A model generated the notes under the pieces. It saw only the letters and a program-made list of their open reading frames with translations. It searched no databases and was not told the origin of the DNA. A stretch of 64,000 nucleotides of DNA, from contig JAHRHZ010000067.1 in NCBI GenBank assembly GCA_024137785.1, positions 6,294,422 through 6,358,421 of the forward strand. Direction: 5' to 3'. Each line of letters starts with the position of its first letter. Positions within the stretch are counted from its first letter, which is position 1. This stretch comes from Ginglymostoma cirratum (Eukaryota). Positions 1 to 63,674 of this stretch are shown piece after piece. The position numbers and the translations under genes were made by a program.

Positions 1-1157
1 CAGGGGAAGGGGAACACACTTTCCGTACAAATAACTCATCTGCAGGCGCGAAGCTAGAAAGATACAGGCTGAGGAAAAGAAAAGTTCGTTTTTCTAAAGT
101 GAACAATTTCTTACACAGGATCTTTTGCCTCCAATGAATAAATGATGGGTTAATATGTTTCAGTGGTGTTCTGATAAACATATCTGCTTTGAACCATGCT
201 GTGAAAGCTTTTACATTCCCTAGAGGAGTAAGAGCTGTCAGCATATAACATCTCATTCAAAACAGCCAAACCTCTGACACTGCAGTGCCCCTCAGAATTA
301 GACTGGCTTATATTAGGTGGTAAAAGACTGGATAGGTTAATGATCCTCTGGCTTTTAAGCAACAGTTCTAAATGATTTGCGTGGGTGAGAAGCTGCTTAT
401 TTGAGGATATTGCTCTTTGACGAGCAATGAAATACACCCTCACAGCCCTTTGCTCATTGGGAAAGGGTCAATCCTTTTATTCCTCAGTAAATGCTCTTAC
501 CAGGTAATCACCTGGATTGGACATTTTCCCCCCTTATATCCAGAAGTATTTTGCATACAACTGGACATTTTTAGTCATATTGTCTCATTTGTTTAAAGAT
601 GACTAGGAAATGACTTTGTTTCCACCCCACCCGCCATGTGATTTACATGCAAGAGTCTTTAAAAAGGACAATGCAGACCAGATATGACAGTTGTAGAAAA
701 GCTGAAGGCCCCAGATTAAATTTAATTTAATCATTAGTTAGGATTAAGAATGCCTGCTATCATATGCTGTATGAGACTAACAGCATCTTCTGAATTGATT
801 CCTTTCCCAAAGTTGGAATTGTTTCAATTATGATGGGTTCAAGCTTTTTCCTCCCTCAAGCAATACCAGAGTTTGGTTTAGTAAACAAGGCAGGCTCCTT
901 GAATTATGATTATTGTAATGACTGATCATTAATGCTCACTAATTTATAAAGCTCTGGAATCAAAAACTAAAAGATCTTACCTTGAAGATTAGGAAGGTGG
1001 AGATTTTGCACTAAGACTAGCAGACAATGTTGTCCAGGCCATCTTGACCCCATCAAGAATTTCCAGATGGTTATGTCACTGTCAAGATTCATTAAGTCCC
1101 ACTATAGTGCAGCCCTCTATTGGCAGAAATTAACACCTTTTAAAAAGAGGCTTGACA

Positions 1158-1325
1158 ATAGGGATAACAAGGTTTACAGCTAGATGAATACAGCAGGGAA
1201 GCTGACATTTCATGAAAGGTCTAGGCCCAAAATGTCAGCTTCCCTGCTGCTTGGCCTGCTGTGTTCATCCAGCTCTAAACCTTGTTAGCTCAGATTCTCC
1301 AGTTCCTACTATCAGTAGATAGGGA
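1158..1325. mobile_element. Short palindromic Penelope-derived insert with a decayed hammerhead motif
   Basis: Inverted arms cagcagggaagctgacattt / aaatgtcagcttccctgctg; ataggga duplicated at the flanks. Confidence 0.6.
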
Positions 1326-4033: not shown

Positions 4034-7000
4034 CTGTGTACAAGGTGGCAGGAAGTAAGGCTAATAGCAAGCTATTATCCTAAAGCCCAATTGTAGGAGT
4101 GTTGCCACTGGACACAGCAGTTGAACCTTAATCTGCTCTTTCAGAATACTTTAAGCCAGCTAATCAGTTACTTTTGCTTGTGAATTAACATGCAATACAT
4201 TTCATACCATTTGCCTGGGATAGGTCTGCAGTTTTTCCTTCAGCAAGAGCTAAAACTATGGGTCTCTTCAGTGTCACTAATCCATGGTAGGCAGCTTTAT
4301 CATCTGAAGTGTTAAAGTCTGAATGTCTGGCCATTCCTGGGCAGGAGGAAAGAGGAAGTTTGTAAGATGAAGCTAATCGAAATAAAGTTTACATTTTAAA
4401 AATCATTAATGTTTCTTACTTCTGCCAGCACCACAGGTTGTGGCACACTCTTGCATGTCAGGTAGAGGGCACACTGTTACACTACAGTGAAAGTAGACCT
4501 ATTAAAAAAAGAAGAGGTAAGCACCAGAAACCAAGATAATTGAACAAGATGAAAGAAGCACAGACACTAACCTCTCCACTTAGTACTGTTTGAATCTGCT
4601 GGTTCCAGAATGTAAATGTCTTCACTTCAAACCGTTTGTGATGTGTTGGAAATGACAGGTTGGAAGCTGCATCTACTGCATGTAGCTGGGTCAAGTAGTT
4701 GTCCTTGTAATATGGGCACCTACAAAGGAGATGCAAGTGTTTCATTAGAAGGTGAAAGCACAGATTGTATGAAGTAGTATGTTTCTTAGGAGTGAAATGG
4801 AATACAAGTGTGACAAATATTGCATTAGTGGGTAGGATGGGAATTTAGATAATTAGAGTTTCATTTGTAATTCCTTGCACAAATCTGTCTACAAAGATAA
4901 CAAGGTTTAGAGCTGGATGAATACAGCAGGCCAAGCAGCANNNNNNNNNNNNNNNNNNNNNNNNNNNNNNNNNNNNNNNNNNNNNNNNNNNNNNNNNNNN
5001 NNNNNNNNNNNNNNNNNNNNNNNNNNNNNNNNNNNNNNNNNNNNNNNNNNNNNNNNNNNNNNNNNNNNNNNNNNNNNNNNNNNNNNNNNNNNNNNNNNNN
5101 NNNNNNNNNNNNNNNNNNNNNNNNNNNNNNNNNNNNNNNNNNNNNNNNNNNNNNNNNNNNNNNNNNNNNNNNNNNNNNNNNNNNNNNNNNNNNNNNNNNN
5201 NNNNNNNNNNNNNNNNNNNNNNNNNNNNNNNNNNNNNNNNNNNNNNNNNNNNNNNNNNNNNNNNNNNNNNNNNNNNNNNNNNNNNNNNNNNNNNNNNNNN
5301 NNNNNNNNNNNNNNNNNNNNNNNNNNNNNNNNNNNNNNNNTGCTGCTTGGCCTGCTGTATTCATCCAGCTCTAAACCTTGTCTGATTCTCCAGCTCCTAT
5401 CTTTTAGGAAAAACCTTGAAACAAATGCATTTATCATCAAGTCCTTGCTCTGGTTAAGAGCCTAGGTTATCTCAACTGTTGATTTATGTTGCTAGCTTCA
5501 ATAACCCCTTCTGATTGAAAGGGCCACTGGATTTGAGTGCTGGTGGTGATTTAACTGCATCTTTAGACAAAGTGCATTTAAGCTTTTCATTAAAAACAGC
5601 TAAAAATTGTGTTTATGGGTAACTGGAACACTACAGGACAACTTTAAAAACTGCATTTTGGGAATCAAATTAAGCATTAGAGGCCTTCACTGAGTAGTGA
5701 AGTTGACCAAATGAGTGGTCAAAGGTCAAGTACTGAGCATCTAAGCTAATGCTTTTGCATCACGGACAGAAAGTCAAAAGGCTAGCATGAAGCCTGTTGG
5801 CAGGACTTTCCATCTGAGGTTGGACAGTATGCACTTGTCTGCTAGTTCCACAAAAAGCAAATACTTGCCCATGCAGGAGAACGCTCCACCTTGGGGCATG
5901 ATGAGGGTCAAGTGTTTGTGTTGCCCAGCAATCATTCAGCACTAGTTCAATATTGGGATCAGTTCGGTGGAGCAGGCGTACTTCCACATATACTGGCTCC
6001 CTGAGAAATTTCACTAGAGGGTAGTCTTCATCAGCAAACCAAGTACTATAGGACTTTTCTGCAGGAGAAAGTAAATAGTGAGCAACAAATAAAGAACTTG
6101 TGCAGTTCTCTAGATGCAACTAGACTTACCCTTTGCAATCCTCATTTCTATTTGGAGGACACCCTCCCTCAATATGGAAGGCAGGGGTGAAGCAGTATTC
6201 ACTACTAGTGTCAAAGGGATCTCTCTCTTGCCAGAGAAGTGGCATTTCACATGCAACCTAGGAAAACAGTATTAGTGCTTCATATTAAAGTGTCATACAA
6301 GTCATTTAAATACTACAGTTGACCAGAAAGACAACAGTACATGCTATTCACAAGGTGCATACAGGAATCTTTGCTCAAGGACAGCTTTGAGATTAGTTGG
6401 AGTGGAGGAATGATGCTTTAAATGGAGCTGGCTGTTCCCATTTCACTGCCTTCAAGAGATTAATCTTAGAACCAAAAAGGATGTAGCAAAGTACAATATC
6501 TAGAAGGCACTTGAGAATTATGCGCCCATTGAGGACAGGAACTTCATTTTTGGCACCATGCTTAATGTGGGATGTTGAGTGAATTGTAACATGCAGGCAC
6601 TGTTCAGTGCATGGACTAGGAACTTCAGGGTCAGGTTGCTTACAAAAGTCATCAAGATAGTGGCCTAGGTTTGAAGTGATCATGTACATGATTAACAAGA
6701 AAATTTATAGATAGGGATAAACTGAAGTTGGCAAGAGAATCAGCCATGTTGTGTGAAGTATTTAAAACCCTGAAGTTAAAGAGAAAGCTGTGTTTTGATT
6801 CAGTAAAATGTTGCTGCTACAAAAATGTTTAGAGCTCACTTGAAAGTACTCTCCCTGGTTATAGAGCCACGAGGTCCACTTTGCATTTTCCTTTTGGAAA
6901 CTATATCTACACTGTAAGTGATGTTTAGTCCATCACCCTATGGAGAGAAAAAGTACATGAGGATATGATCAGTGGTTCCCCTAGTTATTCTCTCTCGGGG

Positions 7001-10000
7001 GCGCCCACCCAAGAAAAAGAAACTTACTATTTGTGTAGTCCCACACGAATCAAGAGGAAACCTGAAGAGGATGAACTCAGTTGTCCTGGTTATAGGGAGA
7101 CACTGAGGACTTGTCTTATTCAGCAAAGAGACAGAATCAAGGTCGAGTGCTGGCACAGTAGCAGCCCTAGGTACCACAATGGTAAATAGCCCATTGTGGG
7201 AACAGTCAATATAAGCTGGGCAGAAAGATATTGTAGTTAGTAAACACCACCAGTTAAGTGCTGCACAAATAGGTTTACTATTGCATTCATCTGAAATTAA
7301 ATTCTCACTATAATCCAAGTCTAGAACTGGCATTTAAATCAAGCTTCTTTCTGTAGAGATCAGCCTTCACTAAGGAAAGTGAGTCTGGTCAGCTTTAAAT
7401 TGGAATTGTAAGAACTAATGCCCACATTAGGGGCATTTAAACAGTCCTTGGATAAGGATGATGGGATAGTGTAGGGGATGGGCTTAGATTAGTTCACAGG
7501 GCAGCATAACATTGAGGGCTGAAGGGCCTGTTCTGTGCTGTATTGTTCTATGTTCTAATAGAATAACTATGGTGTTTGTACATGAGGCTAGAACAATTCT
7601 TGATTAAAAGATTTGATTACAATCTTGCCAGTTAGAACAAAAACCAACCAGTTTTTCCATAAAAGCATGGAATTTGCTTGATGGGATCATAACAGCAGCC
7701 TTTGGCATTGCATTCTTCAAGTGTGACATTTCCACAGTTCACACGGTCCTTGGCATCAACATCACAAATGTGGGTTTTGTCTGCAACAGGGACAAGTTTA
7801 GTGAACCACAAGCAGTTAAAAACCAAACTAGATGCCTAGGGTTGTGTTCTGGTCTTACTTCAGATATCCTGGTCTAGAAGGCCCATTGGGGAGTGATAGC
7901 AAGTAATTAAAAAGCTTTGTTACTAGTTAACTTGATCTGGAATTACTTCCACCTGTTCAGAAGTTGAACACCTCCAGGTTAGGTGATATTTGAACCAGGA
8001 TCTTCTGGTTTGCAAGTGCTACCAGACTCCACAGTTCATGCAAAAACCTGATTAGTAGTTAGCATGTTATGCTAAACATTACATAATCCATGTCCAAAAA
8101 TTAGACAACTCATGAGTAAACTAGAGAGAAGCCAACTTAAGTTGCACTTCTAGAAGAAGTTATCAAACTAGGCTCATTGACTGCTGGGCACAGGAATGGT
8201 GAACATCAGGTAATTCAAGTGCCTGCCTATCTGATTCAGGCTGGGTCACTAGACACCTAAATTCTGTCTTTAAAGTCTCATGGGTGATGCCATCATTTTA
8301 CTGAAGTTTTGGGATTTTATCTAGGGTAGCAAGTTAATGCTGGCTTAATTTGCATATCATACCTCCATCTGGTTTCAGGTCCATGCTGATTGAGGTAGCT
8401 GTGGAACCAGCTGTTGTCTGTCCCACAAGTGGGATTGTGGCAGTAGCACTCACTGGCTCCTTGGTCAATGGGGTGGCATCCACTGGCTCCTTTGTTACTA
8501 GAACAGTTGCAGTGGTATTCACTGGCTCCTTGGTGGAAAGNNNNNNNNNNGTGGTCACTGCAGTGGTCTTCACTGGCTCCTTGGTTACTAGGGCAGTTGC
8601 ATTCACTGGGGCAGTCACTGCAGTGGTCTTCACTGGCTCCTTGGTGGAAAGAGTCACTGTGGTGGTATTCACTGGCTCCTTGGTCAGTGGGGTGGTCACT
8701 GCTGTGGCGTCCACTGGCTCCTTGGTGGAAAGAGTCACTGTGGTGGTATTCACTGGCTCCTTGGTCAGTGGGGTGGTCACTGCTGTGGCATCCACTGGCT
8801 CCTTGGTGGAAAGAGTCACTGTGGTAGCAGCCACTGGCTCCTTGGTCAGTAGGGTGGCATCTACTGGCTCCTTGGTGGAAAGAGTCACTGTGGTAGCAGC
8901 CACTGGCTCCTTGGTCAGTAGGGTGGCATCCACTGGCTCCTTGGTGGAAAGGGTCATTGCAGTTGTATTCACTGGCTCCTTGGTTATTAGGGTGACAGTC
9001 ACTGGCTCCTTGGTGGTCAGAAGGGTTCCTTTTGTGGGTCCCACTGTTGGGGAAAGTTATAACAGTTAGGATAAAACCAGACTGTCTTTGTAGAGGGGAT
9101 TATGTAGTTATGAACATTTGGCATGTGGGGTTACTATTGAGTAGTCAGAAATTCTGGTTCCACAGGAAAGTTTCTCCTTGTAGGGCCAAGATCAGATATG
9201 CAGCTACTGTAGAAAAGAATGGGGGAGGAGGGAGCTTGTTATTCTGATATAGCCAATTCAGTCACTGACCATTTATAGTGGTCAAAAGGCCAGATATGCA
9301 GGTGTTTATAGCTCTATCCAAACCTTATGGTAGATACAGTACTGCAGGCCTTAAAGACAGCCTGCGAGTACAGCTTTGTTAAATTCAACTTGAGGCCAAT
9401 TGAGAATAGTACAGCAGTAGGACCCAAAGTTTGAATGCTTTTTGGAGGACAGCAAAAGCTACCATTTTAACAAGCAGACTAAAGGCTACCATGTTCAGGA
9501 GATTGAATTGAGAACTAGAGACATTTACATCAGAAAGAGTCTGGAGCTGGCTTTAACCCTTGCTCTAGATATAGAGAAATATTTAAGTTAGTCTACATTA
9601 GCAGTGGTAAAGTGGTCACTGACTTGAGACAGCTAATGTTTTAAAGAGGTTAATAGAATTAAGAACCAAGACTATAACCCTTTCAGATCCTACCAGGGAA
9701 TCACTTGATCGATCATTGTGCTCTTGGAGAGCACAGGCAAGGCCAGATGAAGCAACGAGTGTAAAGTCAACTAGGCACAATACACAACTGATCCAGGACA
9801 ATGGACAAGAGCAAGTGTTTCAAAGCAACAGAATCTGACTTCTACACAGGGCAATGGACCATTAGCTTCTTGTACAGGAAGAAGTTAGTTTTGTGGTCAA
9901 AGCCTTTGGGCAAACCTACCGGTCACAGAAGCCAGTGATGGCAGGGTACAGCTTAATGGAATGCGTTCTATGACCATAATCCTCCTGGATGCATCAATTC

Positions 10001-14279: not shown

Positions 14280-14632
14280 ATCGCAGAAACCTGCAGTGTG
14301 GAAACAGGCCATTCAGCCCAACAAGCCCAAAGTGCCCCCCCAAAAAGCATCCCACCCAGACCCATCCCCCTACCCTCTCCCTGTAACCCTACATTTCCCA
14401 TGGCTAATCCACCTAGCCTACACACCCCTGGAAACTATATGTAATTTAGCATCACCAATCTACCCGAACCTACACATCTTTGGACTGTGGGAGGAAGCCG
14501 GGGCACCCAGTGGAAACCACGCAGACATGAGGAGAATGTGCAAACTCCATAAGACAGTAACCCAAGGCTGGAATCAAACCCAGGTCCCTGGCTCTGTGAG
14601 GCAGCAGTGCTAACCACTGAGCCACCATGTTG
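14280..14632 (-). mobile_element. HE1-type V-SINE, inserted in an older Deu-domain SINE (about 13990-14725)
   Basis: Minus strand reads ggtggctcagtggttagcactgctgcctcacagagccagggacc...ggagtttgcacattctcc. Confidence 0.85.
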
Positions 14633-16039: not shown

Positions 16040-16175
16040 AAAAACCAAAAGAACTGCGGATGCTGTAAATCAGGAACAAAAACAAAGTTGCTGGAAAAGC
16101 TCGGCAAGTCTGGCAGCATCTGTGAAGAAAAAGTCAGAGTTAACGTTTCAGGTCCAGTGACCCTTCCTCAGAACA
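16040..16175 (-). mobile_element. Short Penelope-derived insert carrying a minimal hammerhead ribozyme
   Basis: Related copies at 19297, 24888 and 38499 (gttgctggaaaagctcagcaggtctggcagcatctgtg). Confidence 0.7.
16139..16174 (-). ncRNA. Minimal type I hammerhead ribozyme motif, intact core
   Basis: GUU-CUGAGGA-A-GGGUC-ACUG-GACCU-GAAA-CG-UU-AAC. Confidence 0.6.
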
Positions 16176-16249
16176 GTTCCTCAGAATACATTGTAGCTGC
16201 AGCTGCTGGCTGCTCGTTCCACTCAACTTGGACCCCTCCTTAATCCCTT

Positions 16250-17090
16250 TATCCAGTATGCTGTATTGGTGCTTTCGCCCTGAACAGGAAAATTTCATCG
16301 ATGTTGCTGCCAGTTTACACCTTGTCTCACTTTCACATGATTCATCTCCATCTTTGGCGGCCCATTTCCCACATGAACCACCCTCTGTGTGAAAATGTTG
16401 CCCCTCGGGTCCCTTTTAAATCTTTCCCTTTTCACCTTAAACCTATGCTCCCTAGTTTTGAACTCCCTACACTAGGGAAAAGACCTTTGCTATTCACCTT
16501 AGCTATGCCCCTCATGATTTTATAAACCTCTATAAGGTCACCCTTGAACCTCCGACGCTCCGGGGGAAAAAAACCCAGCCTATCCAGTCCCTCCTTATAG
16601 CTCAAATCCTCCAGTCCTGGTAATAGCCTTGTAAATCGTCTCTGTACCCTTTCCAATTTAATAATATCCTTCCTATTGCAGGGTGACCAGAGGAAGTGGT
16701 AGATTTAATAGTAGTAGGTACAGTTACCACATTTAAAAGACATTTGGATGGGTACATGAACAGGAAAGGTTTAGAGGGATGTGGGCCAACGCAAGCAGAT
16801 GGGAATCATTTAATTTGGGAAACCCAGTCAGCGCCGACGTGTTGGACCAAAAGGTCTGTTTCCGTGCTGTATGACTCTATGACTCTACCTTCGTGCATTT
16901 CGGGGGATAGGTTATCAACATGTATTTATGATAAACCCACTGACTCACACAATTACCCTGACTACGTTGCTTTCACACTACTTTGTGTAAGAATTCCACT
17001 CTCCCAGTTTCTGCATCGCATCTGTTCTGATAATGCAACTATCCATACCAGTATTTCTGATGTGCCTTCTTTTTTACCTCAACTGAGAGA
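16250..17090 (+). mobile_element. Penelope-like reverse transcriptase remnant, interrupted by a CR1 insertion
   Basis: ISGDRLSTCIYDKPTDSHNYPDY...IPLSQFLHRICSD matches the PLE RT thumb motif (YxKPT...IPxSQxLR...ICS). Confidence 0.65.
16352..16887. mobile_element. CR1 LINE 3' fragment with inverted 5' part
   Basis: Minus segment ERVQRRFTRLLPG...GDLIEVYKIMRG; plus segment TTFKRHLDGYMNRKG then the ctatgact tail. Confidence 0.85.
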
Positions 17091-18880: not shown

Positions 18881-19081
18881 AACGTTGACATAATAGGTCA
18901 GGCAGCATCAGAGGAGCAGGAAAGTCAACGTTTCGGAGTGCTGATGAAGGGTATAAATCAGAAATGTTGAGTTTCCTGCTCCTCTGATGCTGCCTGACCT
19001 GATGTGTTCCTTCAGCTCCACACTGTGTTGACTCTGACTCCAACGTCTGCAGTTCTTGCTATCTCCAATGTTAACACAATA
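18881..19081. mobile_element. Palindromic Penelope-derived insert with a hammerhead-like core
   Basis: 40-bp inverted repeat at 18895-18934 / 18961-19000; CTGATGA...GAAA in the centre. Confidence 0.7.
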
Positions 19082-19282: not shown

Positions 19283-19412
19283 TCAAGAGTGGAAATAAAA
19301 ACAGAGATTGTTGGAAAAGCTCAGCAGGTCTGGCAGCATTTGTAGACAGAAATCAGAGTTAATGTTTCGGGTGCAGTGACCCTTCCTCAGACCCTTCCTC
19401 AAGAGCAGAAAT
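19283..19412 (-). mobile_element. Short hammerhead-bearing Penelope-derived insert
   Basis: CTGAGGA-A-GGGTC-ACTG-CACCC-GAAA-CA-TT; flanks tcaagagtggaaat / tcaagagcagaaat. Confidence 0.65.
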
Positions 19413-19929: not shown

Positions 19930-20830
19930 CTTTGAAAGTGCAGAGAACCGGTTGAGAGGGTTTTTAAAAAGATCCATGGTTTTATTAATAGAGGCATGGA
20001 GTACAAAAGTAACACAGGTGTGCTAAAACTTTATAAATCAGGGTTTAGGCCAGAGCTGAAGTAATGTGGATATCCATGATTTAAGGAGAATGCCAATACC
20101 ATAGAGAGGGTGCAGGGAAGAATAAGTGGAGTGGCGCTAGGGCTTCAGTTTGGCGGAGAGAATTGAGAAATTTGGCTTGTTCCCCTTGGAGCAGACAAGC
20201 TTAAAAGGAGTTTTCATAGAGGCCATTTTCCATCATGCCAGGTTTGTCTCTCGATTCCACCCTCAGGCGACTGTCTGTGTGGAGTTTGCACATTCTCCCT
20301 TTGTCTGTGTGGGTTTCCTCCGGGTGCTCCGGTTTCCTCCCACAGTCCAAAGATGTGCAGGCTAGGTGAATTGGCCATGCTAAATTGCCTGTAGTGTTCA
20401 GGGATGTGTAACATAGGTGGATTATAGGGGGATGGGTCTATGTTGGCTGCTGTATGTTGGTGTGGACTTCTTGGGCCGAAGGGCCTGTTTCCACACTGTA
20501 GGGATTCTATGAAAAAAAAGTTCTTTGAAAAAGGAGAAATTGATTCCAGTGGCAGAAGGGCCAGAAACCAGAGACAAATGTAAAGTCATTGACAAAAGAC
20601 CCAGAAGTGCCTCTCTAATAGGGTTTTTATATTTAGGAATGCAGCAAGTTGGTTGTGATCTGGAATGCACGGCTTGAAAAGGTTTTTTGTAACAGGTTCA
20701 AAAACAACTTTCAAATGGGAATAAATAACTAAAGATGGGGTGGGGAATTTTCAGATCTACCTGGAAAGAACAAGGGAGTGGGACTGATTCGGTAGATCTA
20801 TCAAACTGACATGATGGCCGATTGACCACA
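19930..20830 (+). mobile_element. Old CR1 fragment split by an HE1 SINE (about 20240-20510)
   Basis: gaggcatggagtacaaaagt...gagagggtgcagggaaga; SINE V-domain gtggagtttgcacattctcc. Confidence 0.75.
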
Positions 20831-21099: not shown

Positions 21100-21510
21100 C
21101 AGCTCAAAGCTCCTGGCTGACACTCCAGTGCAGTGAAGGAATTCTGTTAGAGGTGCCACCTTGTGGTGGAGATGTTAAACTGAAGCCTCCTCTGCTCACC
21201 CGCTACTTCAAAAGCACCTGAAGAATGAGCGAGACTCCAAAAGTTTGTGTCTTCAAATAAACCTGTTGGACTATAACCTAGTGTTGTGTGATTTTTGACC
21301 AACTTCAAAGAAAGTGTTGGTTATTCTTGATGTCCCAGCAATATCTGTCTTCCAATCCATATTATCAAACCAGATTGTCTGATCATTACCACAGAGCTAT
21401 TTGTGCACTATATTCCAACGATGACTGTACTTTAAATGTGTTTCATTGACTGCAGAGTGATTTGGAACATCTTGAAATTGTGAAAGGATTTGCACAATCC
21501 AAATCTTTCT
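21100..21510 (+). mobile_element. Deu-domain SINE interrupted by a hammerhead-type insert (21205-21309)
   Basis: gaggtgccacc...gagatgttaaactgaagcc; cagattgtctgatcattacc; L2-like tail. Confidence 0.6.
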
Positions 21511-23274: not shown

Positions 23275-23545
23275 GGGCTGCACAGTGGTTAGCATTGCTG
23301 TCTCACAGCCCTAGGGATCCAGGTTCAATTCCAGTCTTGGGAGACTGTGTAGAGTTTACACATTGTCTCTGTGGGGTTTCCTCTGAACACTCAGGGTTCC
23401 TCCCACAATCCAAAGATGTGTGGGTTAGGTGGATTAGCCATGGGAAATGCAGGGTTACAGGGATAAGATAGATGTCTGGATTGGATGCTCCTCAGTGAGG
23501 GCTTGATGGGCCAAATGTTCTGCTCCTGCACTGCAGGGATTCTAC
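23275..23545 (+). mobile_element. HE1-type V-SINE
   Basis: gcacagtggttagcattgctgtctcacagc...ggttcaattcc...cctcccacaatccaaagatgtg. Confidence 0.8.
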
Positions 23546-24794: not shown

Positions 24795-26620
24795 ATTCAT
24801 TCATGGGGTGTAGGTGTTGCTGGCCATTTCAGCATTTTTTTGCCCATTCTCAATTGCTCTTTAAACAATGGTAATGAGCTGCCTTAATAAAAACTGAAAG
24901 AACTGCAGAAGCTGTCAATCAGGAACAAAAACAGAAGTTGCTGGAAAAGCTCAGCAGGTCTGGCAGCATCTGTGAAGAAAGAAAATTAGAGTTAACGTTT
25001 CAGGTCCGGTGACCCTTCCTCAGAACTGCTTTCTTTAATTGCTTCAGTCTATTTCGTATAGTTTAGGCCTACAATGCCATTAGGATGGGAATTCCAGGAT
25101 TTTGATTGGGTGATACTGGAGGCACAATGGTAGATTTCCAGGTCAGGGTACTGAGTGGCTTTGAGGGGAACTTGTAGGTGGTAGTGTTCCCTTGTATTTG
25201 GTCTGTTATGGGTTTGGAAAATGCTGTCTAAGGAGCCTTGGTGAGTTTTTGCAGTGCATCTCACAGATAGCACCCACAGCTGCTACTAAGCATTGGTGGT
25301 GAAGGGAATGAATATTTATGGGATTTGGTGCAAATCAAATGGACAAATCTACTTTGTCCTAAATGCCAAGCTTCTGGAGTGTTTTTGGGGCTACATTTAC
25401 CCAGGCAAGTGGGAAGTATTCCATCACACTCTTGACTTTTGAGCCTTGTAGATGGTGGACAGGCTTTGGGAATAAAGATATGAATTACTCACTGAGCAGT
25501 TCCTAACCTCTAAATGTTCTTGCAGCTGGTGCATTTATATGGCCAATCCAGTTCAGTTTCTGGTCAATGGTAACTCCCAGAAAGTTGAAAGTGACAGATT
25601 CAGTAATGGTAATGCCGTTTAATACCAAGGGAGAATGGTTAGATCCTCTTGTCAGAGATGGTCATTGCCTGGCACTTTTATGGTGCAAGCCTAGCTATTG
25701 CTCAGTTCTTGTTGCATTTGGACATGGACTGCTTCAGTACGAGGAGTCACGAATGGTGCTGAACATTGTGCAATCAGCAGCAAACATCCCCACTTCTGAC
25801 CTGCAGGATGAAGCAACTGAAGGTGGTTGGGCCAAGCACACTACTCTGAGGAACTTATTCAGTCATGTCCTGGACTCAGAAGACTGACAACCACAACCAT
25901 TTGTGCCAGGATGTCTACAACCAGCAGAGACTTTCTTCTGACTCCTATTAAGACTTGTATTGCTCGAACTCCTTGTTGCCATGCTTGGACAAATGTGGCC
26001 TTGATGTCAAAGGCTGTCACTCTCACCTCACCTCTGGAATTGTGCTGTTTTGTCCATGGTTGGACCAAGGCTGTAATGAGGTCAGGAGCTGAGTGTCACT
26101 GAGCAGGTGTTGCTTGATAGCACTGTTGATGACACCTCCCATCACTTTACTGATGATTGAGAGCAGACTGATGGGTGATAATTAATGGGGTGAGATTTGA
26201 ATTGCATTTTGTACACAGCACATACTTGGCCAATTTCCAATACTGCTGGGTAGATACACCGTTGCAGCTATACTGGAGCAGCTTGTGTCTAAGGGCACAG
26301 CAGGTTCTGGAGCACAATTCTTCAGTACTTTTGCTGGAATGTTGTCAGTGTTCATAACATTTGCAACATCCAGTCTTTTCAAGCTATTCTGTGGCAGCAC
26401 ATGGAGTGAATTGAATTGGCTAAAGTCTGGTATCTGTGATGCTGGAGACTCTGGAGGAGCCCGAGGTAGATCATCCACACAGCACCTCTGGCTGAAAATC
26501 GCAGCAAATGCTTCAGCCTGATCTTCTGCACCAATGCCCCTATGCTAGCCCATCTGTAAAGATGGAATTATTTGTGCCACCTCCAGTGAATTGTTTAATT
26601 GTCCACCAGCATTCCTGACT
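24795..26620 (-). mobile_element. Decayed CR1/L2-clade LINE (RT to 3' end), interrupted by a hammerhead insert at 24888-25027
   Basis: DNIPAKVLKNCAPEPAVPL and VTAFDIKATFVQAWQQG (RT motifs); related 3' ends near 38630-38790 and 46030. Confidence 0.7.
24990..25027 (-). ncRNA. Minimal type I hammerhead ribozyme motif, intact core
   Basis: AGUU-CUGAGGA-A-GGGUC-ACCG-GACCU-GAAA-CG-UU-AACU. Confidence 0.62.
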
Positions 26621-26919: not shown

Positions 26920-27520
26920 GAAAGGCTGCAGGGATGAGAAATATCAGTTGTGAGAATACATTGAATAAGCTGGCATGGTTCTCCTTGGAAAAAACACTTA
27001 AGAGGAGACGTGATAGATGTTTTCAAAATCACGAGTGGGCTTGATAGAGTAGATAGGTTATAGTTCAACAGGATTATTTAAAATGACAAGCTTTCAGAGG
27101 CTCACTTCACTTGACAAAGGGGCTATGCTCCAAAAGCTTGTGATTTCAAATAAACCTGTTGGACTATGACCTGGTATCGTGTGACTTCTGATTTTGTCCA
27201 CCCCAGTGCAACACAGGCACCCCCACATCATGACTTGTGAAAGGAACAAGAATATTTAAAGCGATGTACAAAAGAATCAAGGACGATTGTAAGAAAAGAA
27301 ACTTTTTCCACACAGCGAGTAGTTTGGGCATGGAATGCACTGCCTTGAATGTGGTGGAGGCAGGTTCAGCTGAGGGGTTCAAGAGGGCATTGGATAAAAA
27401 CATTGTGCGAGGGTAATGGGAAAAAACAAAGCACTTAGGGTGGTGATGTTCATTTGAAGAACTGGCGCAGATATGATGGGCTGAATGGCCCCCTTCTGCA
27501 CAGTAAAACTTCTGTGATAC
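26920..27520 (+). mobile_element. CR1 3' fragment interrupted by a partly palindromic Penelope-type insert (about 27056-27232)
   Basis: agaggagacgtgatagatgttttcaaaatc; insert carries aagcttgtgatttcaaataaacctgttggactat. Confidence 0.65.
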
Positions 27521-31066: not shown

Positions 31067-34000
31067 CTATAATTAGGACAAAGAAAACACAGACAACAAT
31101 CAACTTGTAACTTGCAAAAAGCATGCATTGCCTTCAAGAAACAAAGCAAAAATGTTTAATAATTTTCATTGCAACTGTAATCTAACATATACAATATGTA
31201 GTAACAGCTATTCAATGCTACATGTACTTTCATAACACTATACATTTAGTCCATTGGTCATGGTCCATTACCCTGCATACAGTCAAGGAAGTCAACTGCA
31301 ACAAAACTGGAGTGCCCTTAGAACTCGCAACGCCCTTGTTTAATAGTCACTTCAAATATTCTCAAAGCATACAACTAGAATAAAAAAAAGTTCTTAAAAC
31401 TTTCTAAAATCATTACTGCTTTTTTCCTTCTGTTCTTTGTCCATCATCCGAGTTTCACCCAACTGCTGCTCCAAACAGTAATATTACTGCAAAAACCCTT
31501 CCAATACTTTCAGCCCTTTTTGTATCTCCAGGCCTTGCCAACATGTAATATTCGTGCGATCACATGGACCGTTAGACCAAGGAATGGCAGTTGGAGTTTA
31601 ATTTAAATAATTGTAAGGTGTTACATTTTGATAGGGCATATCAGGGCAGGACTTATGACTTAATGATAGGGTCCACAGGAGAGTTGCTGAACGGAGAGAC
31701 CTTGGGGCGCAGGGTCGTAGATCCTTGAAAGTGAAGCCACAGTTGACAGGTTAGTGAAGGCCGTGTTTGGTACACTTGCCTTTATTAGTCAGTACATAGA
31801 TTATAGGAGTTGGGATGTCATGTTGCAGCTGTACAGGGCATTGGTGAGGCCACTTTTAGAACACTGCGTTCAATTCTGGTCTCCCTGCTGTCAGAAAATT
31901 ATTGTTAAACTTGAAAGGCTGCAGAAAAGATTTACAAGTATGTTGCCAGGATCGGAGGGTTTGAGTTACAGGGAGGCGCTGAATAGGCTGGGGCTATTTT
32001 CCCTGGAGTGTCAGAGGTTGAGGGGTGACCTTATAGAGGTTTATAAAATCATGAGGGGCATTGGTGAATAACCCAGGTCTTTTTCCCAGGGTAGGACAGT
32101 CCAAAACTAGAGGGGATAGGTTTAAGGTGAGAGGGAAAAGATTTAAAAGGGCCAATGTTTTCACACAGAGGGTGGTGCGTGTATCGAATGAGTTGCCAGA
32201 GGAAGGGGAGGAGGCTGGTACAATTACAACATTTAAAAGGCATCTAGATAGTTACAAAAATAGGAAATGTTTAGAGGGATATGGGCCAAGTGCTGGCAAA
32301 TCAGACTGGATTAAGTTAGGATATTTGATCAGCATGGATCAGTTGGACCGAAGGGTCTGTTTCCGTGCTGTACTGCTCTATGACTGAGTCTATTCATGGT
32401 CCTTCACTACAACTGTTGTGCCCAATGATTCAGTCACAAGATATATCACAATCTCAACAGTTTTCTGAGATAGTTGCTGTAGATAACAGCACTATTCTAC
32501 AACAGAGAGAAAAAAAAAATCACACTTGCACCAGACCTTTGGGCTGCTTCTGTTCACTGCACCTTAGGGAACTCTCGTGACTGCTCAAGATTCACTTTTG
32601 CAGTTTAAGAAGTCATGTGAAATCCTTGAGATCCACTGCAGGTGCTGAACTCATGCTATTCTTGTTTGCATAGCTGTTGTGAAAGCAGGTGTTGCATTTA
32701 ATAGCTGAAGCATGGTATTAAAATAACAGCTGCATGAAGAATCTCAATTTGCCATGATCAGCAGCCACTGAAAACAAGATTAAAAATTGTCTGGCAGGAT
32801 CTTTTCCGATTGTTTTCTGCTTCTTATTTCACACAATGTATGAGATGAAGCTCTAAGCAGACAATACATCCTTTGTTCATCTGCTTTTTCCTCATTTTTA
32901 AAACAAAAGTACAGACTGTACGATACAATTCTGTTGTAATATTACTTTCCAAGCGCATTTAGAAAAAAATGCAGGATCAGTGTTGAATTGTTTTGTATCT
33001 CACATACAAAATTAACAAGTACAAAATCATTATTTGTATGTTCATCCAATATAGACTGACCGGACACAAAAAAAAGGATAGATTTTTAAAACCAAGTTTA
33101 AAACAACGAATTACATTTTCAGCTTCTCTGTGGAAGAAACTTTGTTAATAAAGTAGAGGAAAGTTAGTCAATTTCCTACAGCAACAGCGTCAGTCTGACA
33201 AAGATAGTCAATTCCTAGGAACAAACTGATTAATCCATTAAATCTTGCCAAAGATTGAGTGGGGAAAAAATGTTCCATTGGGATATTTGATACATATTCA
33301 ACTATTCATAAACTTAGAGCAAATATCTCAGCCTGCTTTGAGATAGAGAGATCATTGATCTTTCATATTAATAATTCATTTCTCTACTATGTAATGCTAG
33401 CCAATAATTCCATCAGTAGTTTGTGTGAAACAAAATTCTCTTGCAATAAATGCATTCAGATTCATTTCAGCAACATTTAAGAGGATTTGGCTGACTGAAT
33501 TCAGTTGCTACAAAATGCTTTTCTTAGTCTGCATATCTGCTGGAATCTTTAAATTTGCTCTATCTCCTTACACAATATAGACAAAATGGATAATATATTT
33601 AGTCCTAATTCCCTCCCTCACCCCATTGTCAGCACAGGCCTTCCCTGTTTAATGCATGCTTTAACATCGTGGCTTCATTTGAGTGCAGCTTCAGATTAGG
33701 GAACGTTCTCCAAATAGCTTTGTCTACATTTTTGTTTTAGCACAGTTATGGAATACGCTTAAGTCTTTTTTAAAAACAAACACTTGCCTCCAATTCACTG
33801 TTTCCCTTCCCAACCCTCCCATGCTGCCCGTCTTGCGTTCCTCCTCACTGTAAACAGGAAGGTTGGAAAAGCAGTGCTGCCGAGGAGTTGCCAAGAGGCA
33901 GGATGGTGCTCAGTGGTTAACATTACTGCCTCACAGGGCCAGGGTCCTAGGTTTGATTCCAGGCTCGGGCGACTGTCTGTGTGGAGTTTGCACATTCTCC

Positions 34001-37000
34001 TTGTGTCTGCATGGGTTTCCTTCAGCTGCTCTAGTTTCCTCCCACAGTCCAAAGATATGCAAATTAGGTGACTGGCCAGGCTAAACTGCCCACAGTATCC
34101 ACAGTTATGCAGGCTGGGTGGATTAGCCACGGGAAATGTGGTGTTACAATGATTGGGGGGGGGGGGGGGGGCCTGGGTCAGATGCTCTTCGGAGGGTTGG
34201 TGACGACACGATGTGCTAAATGGCCTGCTTTCACACTGTTGGGATTCCATGATTCTAAGTTTGAAGTTTGGGAGAGTTTTAGAAACCAGTAAAGGGTGAC
34301 TGAAAAATGATTGAGGAAGAAATAGACAGTAGTAAACAAAAAGGGAAATATAAAAGAGATTGACATTTGTCCAAATAGCAAAAACAATAGTGAAAGTAAA
34401 CATAGATCCTTTGAAAGGTGAGATAGAAGAAATTATAGTGGGGAATAAGAATATGTCAAAGATGTTCAACAAATATGTTGTATCTGACACAGTAGAAGAG
34501 ACAGAGTGGGGAGCCAATGATCTAACAGAAGGAATTCGAAGGCTTCAAACTCAAACATCTTCTGCAAATGTACTCCCAAAAGATACACATTAGGACCCCT
34601 TGCAAGTTCTGACACACTGATTATGAGGTAATTATCTGGGAAATTTAAACTTCCAGTGAGCACTTACCCCACATTTGTAGACCTTTGGAAAAATCTCCAA
34701 CCTTTTACAGCACTAGCTGTTGTATTCCAACTCAGAGTCAGAGATTTTACAAGATTCTATCTCATTTACCCAGATAGATCCCCAGGAAGAGATAGACAGT
34801 TTAAAACCATGAATAACTTCTATGCAACTCAACAACTAAAATCTCCCTAATGGAACCTCAACTCTCCACCTCTGACTCCTCTTTGATCCTCCGCCAACTA
34901 CCCTGCCTATATCTTTTATACTCATTCACCCACCTGCTACCCTACCTGCTTAACTTCTCTCCTTGGCATCTCAAAGAGGTTTTGGATATTTAAACTGTTA
35001 ATTTCTTTGGGAATATAGCAAGTAGTGTCATAAAAGGAGGAAGTGGCTTTTGCAAAAGTTTGCCACCTTCATTGTGAAGATTCTTGCAGTGGGCAAGTTC
35101 CGCAGAATCCACTAAATAGGAGTCGGCACAAAGAATTGCAGTTTAAAGAAAAACTAAGTAACTTTCGTCTAAAATCCTAGAACTGACCCAGATTGGAAAA
35201 CTTGGGCCAAGCGGAAAATACTAATTACAAAATACTGGAGAAGTTATTGGTCTGTAAGTTGAAAAATCTCCTGCACCTAATGGCGTAGAACTAGAGTTCT
35301 AAAAGATGTGACTGCAGAGATAGTGTATGCACTGGTTGTGATTTTTCACAATTTCTTAGAATCTGGAATTATTCCAGTGGATTGCAATAAAGCAACACAA
35401 CATTGCAACTCCAGAAAAGTGGGGAGAGAGAAAACAGAACCACATCAGTTGTACGAAAAATGTTGGAATCTATTAGTAAGTAGAATTAACAAGTACTTAG
35501 AAAATCATATGATTAGACAATGTCAGCGGTTTTAGGAAAGGGCAATGATCAGTGACAAACTTATCGGAGCTTTTTTTTAAAAAAAGGATATACCTAACAA
35601 GATGGATAAAGGGGAACCAGTGGAAATAACATATTTGGATTATTAAAAAGTAATAACTGCCACAGGAAAGATGAGGACTCCTGGGTTTTGAGGTATTAGT
35701 ATGGGCAGATGATTGATTAATGAACAAACAATAAGAATAAATGGGCCATTTTTAAATTGATGAGGTGGTGCTGGTGTTGGACTGGGGCGGATAAGGTCAG
35801 AAGTCACATGACACCAGATTACAGTCCAACATGGTTTACCTGAAATCACAAGCTTTCGATGCGCTGCTCCTTCGTCGGGTGAGGTGGCTCCACCTGACAG
35901 CAGAGTAGCGCTCCGAAAGCTTGCGATTTCAAATAAACCTGTTGGACTATAACCTGGTATCGTGGAACTTCCGACATTTTTAAATTAGTCAGCTCTTATT
36001 AGTGCAGTCACGCAAGCATCTCATTGGGACATCAGCTTACAACGATTAAGATGGAGGGATTGTGTGGAACATGTCTAATTGGAGACAACATGAAACTAGA
36101 TAGGCAAGTTAGTATGGAGAACTATGCAAAATATTTTAAAACATATAGTCTGGTTTTTGGGCAAGAAGTTAGAACATAATGCAAGAAAATGTGGCAAATT
36201 TCATTTTGGTAGGAAACATAAAACAATATTTTTCTACATGGCGTAAAACTATTAAATGTGGGTGTCCTGCCAGACAAAGCACCTGACAGTATAATGTATA
36301 TTACCTTACCCAAGAGAGGATGCATGTGTTTTTTTTGAAGGGGTGGGGCATGCAGTGAAGTTTCTTTAGATTATTTCCTCGGATGTGCAAATTGTCTTTG
36401 TAGAATGATTGAAAAGAATTGGCCACTGTTCTTTATCGCTTAGAAGATTGGGATCAATCTCATCAAGACCTGGGGACACTGATTCTCCCCTAGCTGCCGT
36501 CTAGAAATGGAAGGAGGGGGTAGTGGATGGTTTCAGGATAAGAAGTTGACCATTTAGGACTGAGATGAGGTGAAATTTGTTCAAAGAGTTGTGAATCTTG
36601 GGAATTTTCTACCCAGAGAACTAATGGCATTCAGTCATTTAGCTTATTCAAGACAAAACTGATAGATGTTTTGGTCTCTAACAAAGTCAAGGGATAGAAG
36701 CATTGGACAGGAAAGTGCAGTTGAGTTTGAAGACTGGCCATGACACTAGCGAATGGCAAAGCAGACTCAAGGGGCCTTCTGGTTCTCTCCTGCTCATATT
36801 TCTGACTTTATTGTTTAATCTCTTCATCATCTCCCTACCTCCTTTTATCCTGCTTCTGTACTTGCTTAAAAACTTATATATTTCAATCACTTCCTGGTTC
36901 AGATAAGAGGACATCGACCTAATACATGACTTCCATTTCTTCCTCTAAAGATGCAGTTTGTCCTGTTCAACATTTTAACTGTTTCCAGTTTTTATTTCAC

Positions 37001-40000
37001 ATTTCCAATACTTTTTTTCTGTATTAACAACAGATAGAATTGAAGGCAGGTGGAGTAAAAGACTTGGTGGGGGGTCTACAAAAGGCTGAGTGTGTGTGTG
37101 AAGGCAGGAAAAAGGAAAATAGATGATAGAGAGACAGAGAAAAAAGGTAGCAATAAAAGGTTCCTGCCTATGATGAATATACAGTGTTTTGTTTAAAAAA
37201 AAATCTACCAATGTAGCTTTATAGAGTCATAGTGTAATACAGCATGGAAACAGGCCCTTTGGCCCAAGCTGGTCCATGCTGGCCATGGTCCCCACTCAGC
37301 TCATTCCAACTGCCCACATTTGGTCCATATCCCTCTAAACCCTTCCTCCTATCCATGTACGTATCCAAATGATTTTTTAAAATGTTGCTATTGTACCTAC
37401 CTCAACCACTTTCTCTGGCAGCCCATTCCATATACGCACCACTCTCTGCATGAAAAGAAGTTTCCCCTCAGATCCTCCTCAAATCTTTCCCCTCTCACCT
37501 TAAACCTGCACTCTCTAGTTTTCAATTCCACATCCTTGGGAAAAAGGCTATATGCATTCATCCTTTCCATACCCCTCATGATTTTATACACCTCAATGAG
37601 GTCACCCCTTTTTTCCCTACGTTCCAAGGAATAAAGTCCTTTCCTGGCCAACCTCTCCCTATAATACAGGCCTACTAGTCCTGGCAACATCCTCATAAAT
37701 CTTCCTTGCACACTTTCCAGTTTAATTATGTCTTTCCTATAACAGGGTGACCAAAACTGCACACAATGCTCCATGTGCGACCTCACCAACAACTTATACA
37801 ACCGTAACGTAATGTCCCAACTCCCATACTCAATGCCTCGACCGATGAAGGCCAGCTGCTAAATGCCTTCTTCACCACCCTGTCTACCTGTGATGCTGCT
37901 TACAACGAACTATGTACTTGTACTCCTAGGTCCCTCTGCTCCACAACACTCCTCAGGACCTTACCATTTACTGTATATGTCTGATGTTGGTTTGACTTTC
38001 CAAAGTGCAGCACCTCACACTTATCTGTATTGAATTGCATTTGCCAATCCTCAGCCCACTTCCCCATCTGATCAAGATCCCTCTGTAATTTTAGTTGCAC
38101 CAACTGCCTAAAATTCACAAATCATTGAATGTTGATTATTTGTTGCTATTTTCAACACTCATACCCGGGATGTGAAAAATAAGCACTTACCTGAGACACA
38201 CAAATGTTTTCTTTACATTCTGGTCCACTGTGAACAACACAACATGTTATTTCAGCAGTTCTTAACAATAATATTGTTAAAGATTTATTGTTTCAGCAGC
38301 ACTAATTCATTACCTTTGTGGACTTTGCGACGAGTGGCTCACTTTGTGCTTGTTGTACAACATCATTGACTATCATCTTGGCGATCCGCCATGCCATCTC
38401 TTCCTGTGCCTAAAACAGAAAACTTCACAATCTTATATTGTTACATGGCTGGTGAATGGATAAAACTCTATTTTAACGCAATTAATTCCCTAGTTTCAAA
38501 AACAAAAGTTGCTGGAAAAGCTCAGCAGGTCTGGTAGCATCTGTGAAGAAAAAAATGTCAGAGTTTCTCTAGTTTCATCACTTTCATTTTACCCTCCCTT
38601 TTGTGAATTTTTAAAAAATATATATATGTATATTCATAGGATGTGAGCTTCTCTGGCTGGGCCAGTGTTTACTGCCCTTCCCTTGTTCCCCTCGAGAAGG
38701 AACTGATCAGCTATCTTCTTGAACTGCTATAGTCCATTTGGTGTAACTACATCTACATCGCTACTAGGGAGGGAGTTCCTGGATTCTGCAACATAGCCAT
38801 CACACCCATCTTAATGTGAAACATCGCACGATTGCGGGGAATTCGATGCAGTTTCCCAACAGCATTCAAATTGGAGGGAAGGGAAGGGAGGTTAGCCATT
38901 ACTATTGCACATATAGCAGCTTTGGAATCTAACTGGATCTTGAGGTATATAATCTAAATTATGGATCATATATCTAGGATATGAAAGCCAACGATACAAG
39001 TTGTGCACACAATTATGATCACTTTTAAATATTAGAATCTGACCAACAAGATCCGGGATCAGAAAGGTGAAAAATAAATATTGACCAAGTATTCAAAATT
39101 CTTAAGGGAAAGATAAATTGAACCTGAAAATGTGCATCAAACTTATTAACTGGCACCAATGGTTTAGCTGGTAGCACTCAACTGAGTCAGAAGCTTAGGG
39201 GCTCCAGACACACACTAAATTTAAACTTCAATACAATACCAGTTCAAGTGATTTAGATTGACGGTTAAAGATCCCTCAGCAATATCTGAAGTGGAAGGAC
39301 TGCCCTCAGCCAACATCATAAAAACAGATTTCGTAATCATTCACCTAATTGTTGCTGGTGGGTTTTACTGTGTACATTATAACCATTGTGTTTACCCAAT
39401 AATAAACAGCATCTGTACAAAGTAATTCATTGAATGCAAATTGCTTTGGGAAATACTACAAGTACTGATTCCCACTTTTCTTCACTTAGGAAACAACATT
39501 CATTCTATCTGAAGAAAGTTACCCACTAAGATTTCTATGGAAGCATCACCCACCGGCCTGATACCCTCTTTATATGCACTGGTTATGCAGGGTACAGTTA
39601 CCTCCCCAAGTTTAATTGAGTGGATGGGGAGAAGGGTTAAATGATGACTAATTCAATTCTGCCATAATATTCAACAGTTACGATCAAACGTGATTGAATC
39701 AAATTTGGGCATTTATAGAAAATATTTTTGATTAGTTCACTATTGAGGAGAAAAATAAAAGACAGAGGCATAATTTACAAAAAGAGAATCAGAATCCAAC
39801 ACACAATTAACGCAAGTGACAGATTCATTCATAGTGTCACAAAGCACCTCAGGGATAACAGTAGAAGGTTGTGCCGAAAGGGAAATATTGACGGGTTGGA
39901 TGCAAGTTCAAAACACAGAATGGAGATGAGGATTTTATGAAAAGATGGAAATGACATAGGCTGATATTAAATATGAACAGTAGATGGAGGCCAATGCCCA

Positions 40001-62228: not shown

Positions 62229-63674
62229 CTATTTAAAAACAAAAACATGAAGAGAGAGTAGCATGGACTCTTTATTTAGTAAGAAGGTATATCTGAACTG
62301 AAAGATTCTGTAGCAAACCAGGATAGACCACAGGAGGCAAGAATATTTCTTCAGTACCATATGTTGGTTACAATCCAATGAACATTCAATATTGTACCAT
62401 AGCCCCCTCCCTGTTAAAAAATAACAATCCTGTGTAACTGTGAAATGATTCCCATCAATTATTGGTGGGTACAGTACAGCCACCATTATCCAGGATTCAA
62501 AAAACATTTCTTAAAGTATAAGGCCTACTTTTGCCTGTGAAATGGAGCATTTGTAGGAAGCTCCTCTTACCTTTGCGATAATGCATGATGAACTGGTAAA
62601 ATGAGATATGTTGCACACCAGTCACACTGCAGATTACCAAACCCAACCCTTGGGAAAATGCCAAAGTGGAGGTGGCACACTGCCAAATGCAACAAATGTG
62701 ACAAATTCATGTTGCCATTTTTTTTAAATATAGGTCCAGACCACAGCTTGCATCCAGTAATTCTTCAATGTCTGACCTTCTAAGGATCTCTCTGCATACT
62801 TCACTGCAGACAGCTGGATACTTTCATCTCTCATTGTAAAAGGTACACATACAACAGTTATACAAACAGCTGGTTGCAATGAAGCATGAAGTGAGTTTTT
62901 CAAAAATTAAGAGAATATAACACAAACGGGGAGAAAGAATACAAAGTTAAATCTCGATCTACTGTACACTGCCAAGGTATTGCCATATTAAATTATACCT
63001 TCATACGTTCTTGTCTAACATTATGAAGTAGCAATTCTTTGGCTTATCATGAATTTCCTTCCAAATAAATATGCAAAACTTGAAATGCCACGAATTTACA
63101 ATTGTTTCATCTCCTCACGCAGTCAGACATACACAACAAAAATATCTAAAATTACTCTTGAATTCCCAAGGGCAATAAAAATAAAGATAGCTCAGGATAT
63201 AAACTTAACATCACAATATCCACCATTCAGGGTGGCCTCTCGTTGTCATTTCCATGATTCCCATAAAGTTGGACCTACCACCATCTGTTGTATCATTCAA
63301 AATATATAGAAGATGGTCATAAAAATATTTGATATCATGCTTTCCGGACAATATTAAAATTTAGCCATCAAGAAATCCATATTTTGAATTTTGTCGATAG
63401 TTAGCTTCTTTAGAAGTAACTCATTAGCTGCTTTGGATTGGGCTTCATTCACTTTCTAAGCTTAGCCTGCTATGGGGTATAACCAATGAAAAAGAAAAAA
63501 TTGCTACACAAAAACTATTTATTGGTTGTCTCCTCTTCTGCTCCACTATCCATAACATACTGCTCATCACCAGAACACCCCTACCATATGTACTGTTGCA
63601 CATTAGGCTTCTGGATTTACAGCCATAAATGGCATGTTCTCAATATTTAATCTAGAATTAATATTTCTCACTTA

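Follow-up and report, generated by a model that had tools for sequence, protein, structure and literature searches.

The window (the whole stretch of DNA analysed, 64,000 nucleotides of Ginglymostoma cirratum) holds near position 16,040 a non-coding insert of 136 nt with a hammerhead ribozyme motif. The question raised by this locus is whether such an insert is a mini-element multiplying by itself or a product of a larger one. An earlier note had favoured the former and had grouped about ten related inserts into a separate, ribozyme-processed, non-autonomous retroposon system.

The hammerhead motif and the inserts of the window

The minus strand of the window from 16174 to 16139 reads GUU-CUGAGGA-A-GGGUC-ACUG-GACCU-GAAA-CG-UU-AAC, in exact agreement with the letter-by-letter reading of the earlier note. 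The core CUGANGA ... GAAA ... UH is present, with N17 being U in families A and C (see below) and C in family B. Judged by its sequence, the motif is a genuine minimal type I hammerhead motif of the Penelope kind. The minimal hammerheads in the pseudo-LTRs of Penelope-like elements (PLEs) are likewise of type I, without a real stem III and with palindromic positions 15.2-16.2, and also share the extra nucleotide after A9, G10.1-C11.1 and a short stem I (Cervera and De la Pena 2014, PMC4209133). The extra A after A9 is found in 82/85 family A copies. The type feature G10.1-C11.1 is present as well, having become G-U at 10.1-11.1 in the window copy by CpG decay; individual copies are decayed, and the central CG is intact in 40/85 family A copies.

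A strict descriptor, consisting of the core with a stem II of at least 4 pairs and a stem I of at least 3 pairs, gave 38 matches in 842,250 non-N bases and none in each of five shuffles, so that the wider motif search proposed earlier supports the motif. The 11 Rfam matches at E<=5 include no hammerhead, and the fold energy of a single hammerhead 40-mer is not more stable than that of its shuffles (z 0.43). The evidence for the hammerhead is therefore the motif and its covariation, not energy. The proposed comparison of stems across families revealed compensatory changes in stem I, stem II and the palindrome over the three families. Pair I.1 is U-A in families A and B and C-G in family C, I.2 changes from U-A to A-U and I.3 from G-C to C-G. 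Between families, II.3 is G-C or A-U and II.4 is U-A or U-G as against G-C, while the palindrome 15.2-16.2 is ACGU in A and B and AGCU in C. These counts come from 85 A, 96 B and only 9 C copies, which were assigned to families by the downstream tail and not by pairing; base pairs were counted by motif anchoring, the MAFFT alignment A1 shifting family C by one column. Subfamily B3 has only 2 good stem I pairs.

The cut is predicted after GAAACGUU in family A, GAAACGUC in family B and GAAAGCUU in family C. When the complete 136-mer is folded in silico, the core is predicted to pair with the pyrimidine tract directly 3' of the cut, an inactive alternative that is not better than shuffles (z 0.56). 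Published minimal hammerheads cut weakly (PMC4209133), that of PAc, the Poseidon element of green anole, is cleaved only with protein (PMC11167929), and 1/9 frog hammerhead dimers was cut (bioRxiv 10.64898/2026.07.22.740005).

The inserts of the window are listed below with the basis of each entry.

16139..16174, minus strand: minimal type I hammerhead motif as identified by sequence; C3 at 16171, predicted cut between 16142 and 16141
16040..16174, minus strand: family A terminus assigned to a Neptune-type PLE, hammerhead plus ~100 nt, long ('tail') 3' end; 95% to the reference of family A, spanning -33 to +103 around the cut
16040..16073, minus strand: optional ~33-nt tail between the two 3' ends of family A (+65..70, +100..103); bimodal 3' ends
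16175..16187, minus strand: short repeat of the first bases of the insert, stacked on its 5' end; direct reading
1146..1325, no single strand: family B head-to-head pair, 7-bp flanking duplication; family assignment and duplication screen
4895..5394, no single strand: family B head-to-head arms flanking an N run; family assignment
18890..19065, no single strand: family B head-to-head pair, stem II decayed; family assignment
19294..19403, minus strand: family A solo copy, short 3' end, 5' fragment repeated (19392-19403), 7-bp duplication; family assignment and duplication screen
21215..21300, plus strand: family C solo copy, 10-bp duplication with one mismatch; family assignment and duplication screen
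24889..25028, minus strand: family A solo copy, hammerhead intact, long 3' end; family assignment
27055..27230, no single strand: family C head-to-head pair; family assignment
35758..35975, no single strand: family C head-to-head pair, 14-bp duplication with one mismatch; family assignment and duplication screen
38497..38565, minus strand: family A solo copy starting at the predicted cut site, without hammerhead, 13-bp duplication with one mismatch; family assignment and duplication screen

All ten inserts fall into three families, as roughly counted before: A (16040, 19294, 24889, 38497), B (1146/1206, 4895/5341, 18895/18941) and C (21215, 27055/27101, 35758/35891). Five of the ten are head-to-head pairs, and in the insert at 4895 an N run separates the two arms. 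An optional tail at one end of a PLE is known from other families (PMC8557442, PMC11167929). The repeat at 16175..16187 is likely an RT (reverse transcriptase) re-start at the template end. Flanking duplications scoring at least 7 (7-14 bp) were found at 5/10 inserts, random pairs of places reaching 7 in 9% and 10 in 0.3% of cases. The many duplications of 7-15 bp claimed earlier are thus real for half of the inserts, and the search around 16040 gave none. The hammerhead implied for the insert at 38490 is missing, the copy there beginning at 38497 with the predicted cut.

The parent element and the neighbouring RT remnant

By its sequence relations, the 136-nt insert is the hammerhead-bearing terminus of a Neptune-type PLE with RT and a GIY-YIG endonuclease. 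Among the best 30 genomic matches of the insert, 5 extend upstream into a common body; its ORF, as seen in locus L022, runs through a CX4CxxC linker into the final part of a GIY-YIG endonuclease. Long relatives of the parent ORF (P0026, P0040, P0053) carry RVT_1 and GIY-YIG. When loci were selected by RT, at least 17/29 ran from RT through endonuclease and 3'UTR into the same terminus as the insert, and the family B terminus likewise stands directly after the end of a GIY-YIG ORF. On the other side, sequence upstream of the N-terminal region was taken from 7 loci, and in 4 of them the tail passes directly into the element body and ORF start, with the first ATG of the body ~37 nt beyond the tail. 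Locus L241 shows a 388-nt pseudo-LTR before the element body, and L243 shows an inverted stub followed by a near-full-length copy that starts 8 nt inside the 5' edge described below.

The layout of the element is thus 3'UTR, TATA-like box, initiator-like A, hammerhead, ~65 nt, a ~33-nt tail and the ORF (RT, CX4CxxC linker, GIY-YIG), and its 3' end carries the same hammerhead piece as its 5' side. A pseudo-LTR formed by partial tandem, an inverted copy and an optional tail of 30-40 bp, all marks of EN+ PLEs, were found here. Neptune and Nematis elements (PMC8557442, PMC3846280) resemble the present ones in having RT with C-terminal GIY-YIG, a CX2-5CxxC linker and a pseudo-LTR, as well as an inverted 5'-truncated copy, a 30-40 bp tail on one end and 8-16 bp duplications. 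Under the definitions of PMC8557442, families A and B are classed by their features as Neptune/Nematis-type EN+ PLEs.

The comparison with autonomous PLE termini called for by the earlier note shows that the same 136 nt end long RT+GIY-YIG elements. They also precede the ORF in near-full-length copies, and the short copies form no cluster of their own, so the idea of a separate non-autonomous system is not supported. Its other part, a Penelope RT as the likely mobiliser, is supported. Family C has a common upstream body of ~330 nt ending in microsatellites; no ORF was reached in 5 loci examined for its coding parent, and none of its termini were found near Poseidon-like ORFs. A Pfam search with only the decayed fragments of this genome and a search of solved structures (0 matches) returned nothing.

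In L241:370-415 (minus strand), the first ATG of the body is preceded by a pyrimidine tract and CAG, and the family A tail region contains two further acceptor-like sites. Like fly Penelope, the element may have an intron in its 5'-UTR; the 15 joints listed out of 80 include none that links the hammerhead region with this CAG.

An RT remnant lies next to the insert, on the opposite strand:

16190..16350, plus strand: decayed Penelope-like RT remnant, first piece (around the catalytic motif); translation, matching L050 just upstream of the second piece, E 1.8e-6
16350..16884, no single strand: fragments of another repeat splitting the RT remnant; common to 31875-32385, 37455-37544 and 57367-57501
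16885..17087, plus strand: decayed Penelope-like RT remnant, second piece (thumb region); 48% to P0001, E 1e-14, and 35% to the RT+GIY-YIG protein P0040, E 5e-6

The splitting fragments are presumably 3' ends of CR1-type LINEs and, with the SINE-like repeats of the window, fit the repeat content of a cartilaginous fish. A tblastn search of the window with P0040 gave no match at E 0.01. The divergence of the remnant from the majority sequence of other copies (n 29, range 4-23%) is 23%, that of the insert from its family reference only 5%; the remnant is therefore probably an older insertion separate from that at 16040. The adjacent Penelope RT reported before does exist (about 16190-16350 and 16885-17087, split by LINE-like pieces), while its link to the insert probably does not. 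Its reading as an inverted arm of the 16040 insertion was not supported: no duplication is common to the two, no endonuclease piece is nearby and the divergence differs.

The fixed 5' edge and the pairing of 3' ends

The insert is probably no self-spreading mini-element but a run-off copy, and a dead end, made from the leading ~135 nt of its parent's uncut mRNA. The evidence comes from the ends of copies in a sample of 1,037,112 bases, made up of the window and 10 hand-picked blocks (16 blocks of 100 kb were fetched, and 6 consisting entirely of N were dropped). The 3' ends in this sample number 117 for family A, 179 for B and 13 for C, or about 298 per Mb, and 240 of the 296 A and B ends are stubs, not longer than 145 nt and starting within 40 nt of the cut. 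With a genome size of 4.36 Gb, rough extrapolation gives perhaps about a million such ends per genome.

Among the copies reaching the core, 48/62 in family A and 44/82 in family B stop 1-8 nt before C3 (1 A and 24 B copies touching N runs, 25 in total, are left out of the edge counts); in family C, 6/8 stop within 11 nt before C3. At this edge the rate of 5' stops per nt is 0.168 (A) and 0.094 (B) (Fisher p<=1e-14), as against 0.0135 and 0.018 inside the hammerhead, 0.005 and 0.003 downstream, and 0.009 and 0.006 over the adjoining 50 nt upstream. The match of copies to the parent drops to background beyond -4/-5, and family B copies peak at -3. Flanking duplications are present at 11/41 solo edge copies and at 0/41 controls; junctions defined by duplications were obtained in 22/130 screened copies, 16/22 of them lying within 6 nt of C3. 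When loose ends in contigs of other organisms are ranked by support, the position 3 nt upstream of C3 comes within the first six in those coded B, F and C (170, 371 and 31 contigs). This is not so in the contigs of organism E, but strand-switch joints at this position occur in the runs of all four.

The excess of stops at the edge rules out random 5' truncation, which the earlier note had named as a danger to its reading. It is also no artefact of a subfamily with different upstream sequence, since the upstream flanks of 41 solo copies are unrelated except for one tandem pair and two weak matches (E 0.004). The copy at 38497 suggested that 5' ends are set by ribozyme cleavage. This was rejected: no excess was found at the cut site, with 7 stops in 746 base-exposures in A (0.009) and 3 in 1067 in B (0.003), p 0.17 and 1.0 against downstream. 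Since the 5' ends lie before the core and tandem pairs are rare (see below), ribozyme processing of the inserts is not supported.

The edge coincides with promoter-like signals. In families A and B, the only TATAWA (with at most one mismatch) standing 29-32 nt before a YYANW site belongs to the A at -4, in 702 (A) and 668 (B) positions, a reading made after the edge was seen; the TATA box of family B has one mismatch, and the edge peak of this family (-3) is one base short of the initiator A. Family C was set as a test beforehand: here an initiator-like A at -7/-8 follows TATAAA at a distance of 31 nt, one of 3 such sites in 444 positions. Copies of this family end between -4 and -10, four of them at the initiator A and beyond stem I. 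The TATA box is conserved at 0.86 in 39 long A copies against 0.70-0.75 around it, and is not clearly raised in B or C. An extra G at the edge, as a sign of the cap, was seen in 10/23 copies at the initiator A, which is no clear excess. The motifs make it likely that the edge marks the mRNA start at the initiator A just before the hammerhead. The promoter of fly Penelope is TATA-less and internal and starts well upstream of the hammerhead (PMC2377424), and TATA and initiator-like motifs have been noted in a rotifer pLTR (PMC3846280). A fourth, Poseidon-like family D (L047:2030-2200, minus strand, also L074 and L079) ends in a hammerhead of another kind, whose stem II is 7 bp long, and carries a conserved TATA-like box ~48 nt upstream of the core; 0/12 of its core-containing copies stop at the predicted start.

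Another explanation of the edge is that the stubs are ordinary 3'-end insertions in which RT falls off 5' of the hammerhead due to RNA structure, either stem I or an RNA-RNA dimer through the palindrome. It draws on the coincidence of the A/B edge with the 5' end of stem I, on the stop rate already raised inside the hammerhead, and on the 14/62 A and 38/82 B core-reaching copies that extend past the edge. In A and B, where stem I begins at the initiator A itself, effects of structure and promoter are not distinguishable, and only family C with its 13 copies separates them; its ends lie beyond stem I, at the initiator A. A block should moreover halt RT on entering the fold from the 3' side and not once the fold is copied, the unique match of TATA and initiator would be a coincidence, and a lone 3' copy would be without the ORF sequence that PAc needs downstream of the RT start (PMC11167929). 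This explanation is unlikely.

The 3' ends are bimodal, at +63..70 and +99..103 from the cut in families A and B and at +53..55 and +90..91 in C. Two terminal arms are present in 53 head-to-head pairs, of which 49 were assignable to a class; in 45/49, a long 3' end is combined with a short one (50% expected, p 4e-10). Only 2/106 arms pass the edge, and 28/52 pairs of the first sample lie within one duplication of 7-16 bp. Pair junctions vary from copy to copy. Such pairs agree with each nicked strand having primed once, each at its own RT start site, with one RNA or two as template. The 24 N runs of the window and the 1.04-Mb sample include 12 between head-to-head arms and 9 beside one, and 17 have a length of exactly 400 N; the assembly is probably broken at young palindromic insertions, so that pairs are undercounted. 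It is quite improbable that the pairs and fixed edges arise by self-priming or fold-back of antisense RNA or of the first cDNA, with endonuclease resolution making the tail. The antisense-RNA version was proposed for rotifer Penelopes (PMC3846280), and short palindromic seams are found at many junctions, but solo copies with duplications have the same edge, and the short-end arm reaches further 5' in 28/45 pairs (the long-end arm in 9), a pattern hard to obtain by folding back the long-end cDNA.

Short and long copies are not separated by their nearest neighbours (p 0.11 in A, n 41; 0.81 in B, n 65), and no diagnostic column survives 60-67 tests (best p 0.005-0.007) on only 90-92 nt of limited power. 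A difference between long and short copies in family A came from loci picked by similarity and was gone in unselected blocks. The short copies are no independent SINE-like family: they are without diagnostic changes (in a 92-nt region of limited power), and the TATA box is outside the stubs. Head-to-tail tandem pairs make up 2/185 hammerhead-bearing pieces, and both units of these doubles stop at the edge. A same-strand 7-mer repeat of the first bases is seen in 7/96 edge copies, some possibly by chance. Repeated 5' fragments and doubles look like RT re-starts after the template end.

An independent non-autonomous ribozyme-processed retroposon, retrozyme- or SINE-like and multiplying from its own short RNA as the earlier note had it, is very improbable: fixed ends, duplications, the density of about 300 ends per Mb, the two tandem pairs, the window copy at 38497 starting at the cut and a 2026 preprint tracing tandem retrozymes to PLE ends (bioRxiv 10.64898/2026.07.22.740005) would suit it, but the inserts are identical to the parent terminus and neither cluster apart from long copies nor show surviving diagnostic changes, the cut site has no excess of ends, tandems are so few, the stubs exclude the TATA box and the pair junctions differ between copies.

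Probable copying of the uncut mRNA and comparison with known systems

Under the run-off reading, transcription would start at the initiator A, and the hammerhead would form the first ~38 nt of the mRNA. The protein of the element would nick the target and begin RT internally, at either of two sites that lie ~100 and ~135 nt away from the RNA 5' end. RT would then run off the 5' end of the RNA, and the stub would be joined in. With both nicked strands primed, one at each start site, head-to-head pairs would result. Being without TATA box and ORF, each stub would have to be made afresh from an autonomous element. A precedent is PAc in vitro, in which RT starts at two internal sites bounding the tail and both strands are cut and extended; the ORF sequence downstream of the RT start is required, and uncut RNA is used as substrate (PMC11167929). 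It is selection on the parent element that maintains the hammerhead, whose cleavage is putative.

A possible but rather doubtful extension is that PLEs replicate by a retrovirus-like strong-stop and jump, the hammerhead cutting the 3' copy to make the RNA 3' end and the stubs being failed jumps. RT would always start on the 5' repeat copy, reach the capped 5' end after ~100-135 nt and have to jump to the RNA 3' end, where the cut of the 3' hammerhead would leave 34 nt of terminal redundancy (start site to cut site) as a landing pad. Long copies would need such a jump from the 5' to the 3' end because a lone 3' copy is without the downstream protein-binding sequence. The repeated 5' fragments and the doubles hint at jumping; circular or tandem templates account for long copies equally well. 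For the regeneration of the pseudo-LTR, no obvious mechanism was seen in PMC2377424. If the extension is true, a successful jump would rebuild the promoter-bearing pseudo-LTR, and roughly one million stubs would be failed jumps.

As an element, the parent is ordinary: hammerheads at PLE ends and mass lone motifs were described in 2014, in the text of PMC4209133. There, thousands of minimal hammerheads per genome are given for coelacanth and frog, mostly single dispersed motifs 'probably related to truncated PLEs', with some opposite-strand pairs as here. Unlike the present case, the text of that paper gives no cartilaginous fish, no fixed 5' edge and no link to a promoter. Its model is a cut, circularised RNA, whereas the stubs here appear to be copied from RNA uncut at this hammerhead. 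Compared with the known EN+ PLEs, the sample differs in the prevalence of stubs, the sharp common edge and the strict pairing of long with short ends.

Poseidon of green anole, PAc (Frangieh et al. 2024, PMC11167929), is similar in having the hammerhead ~100-150 nt upstream of two internal RT starts. The extension of both cut strands, the uncut RNA substrate and the absence of reads ending at the cut site reported for it are also alike here. PAc belongs to the Poseidon clade and its ORF starts inside the hammerhead, while the first ATG of the common body here follows the tail. Non-LTR retrozymes (PMC7229834; bioRxiv 10.64898/2026.07.22.740005) are, like the inserts, short, non-coding, hammerhead-bearing and related to PLE ends, and the preprint includes one cartilaginous fish. 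According to the same sources, they are head-to-tail tandems of 150-450 bp, usually with canonical hammerheads, and are expressed as circles. In contrast, the present units are solo or head-to-head, seldom tandem, carry a minimal hammerhead and have ends not set by cleavage. A literature search covering mainly the main text of open papers found no report of a fixed 5' edge at a promoter or of a rule joining long and short ends.

The stubs form a dense fossil record of a transposition cycle that is still poorly understood. This record implies a template uncut at this hammerhead, with its 5' end likely at the TATA/initiator just before the ribozyme, and two-ended insertions that use each of the two RT start sites once. 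It makes both the function of the PLE hammerhead and the regeneration of the pseudo-LTR testable.

Elsewhere in the window, a threonine-rich, mucin-like repetitive ORF of 240 aa is located at 8334-9056 on the minus strand. An exon-like ORF at 61558-62232 (minus strand) presumably resembles the RGS region of AKAP10, and the stretches 14287-14625, 20253-20505, 23280-23471, 33908-34169 and 44098-44417 contain what we take to be abundant SINE-like repeats.
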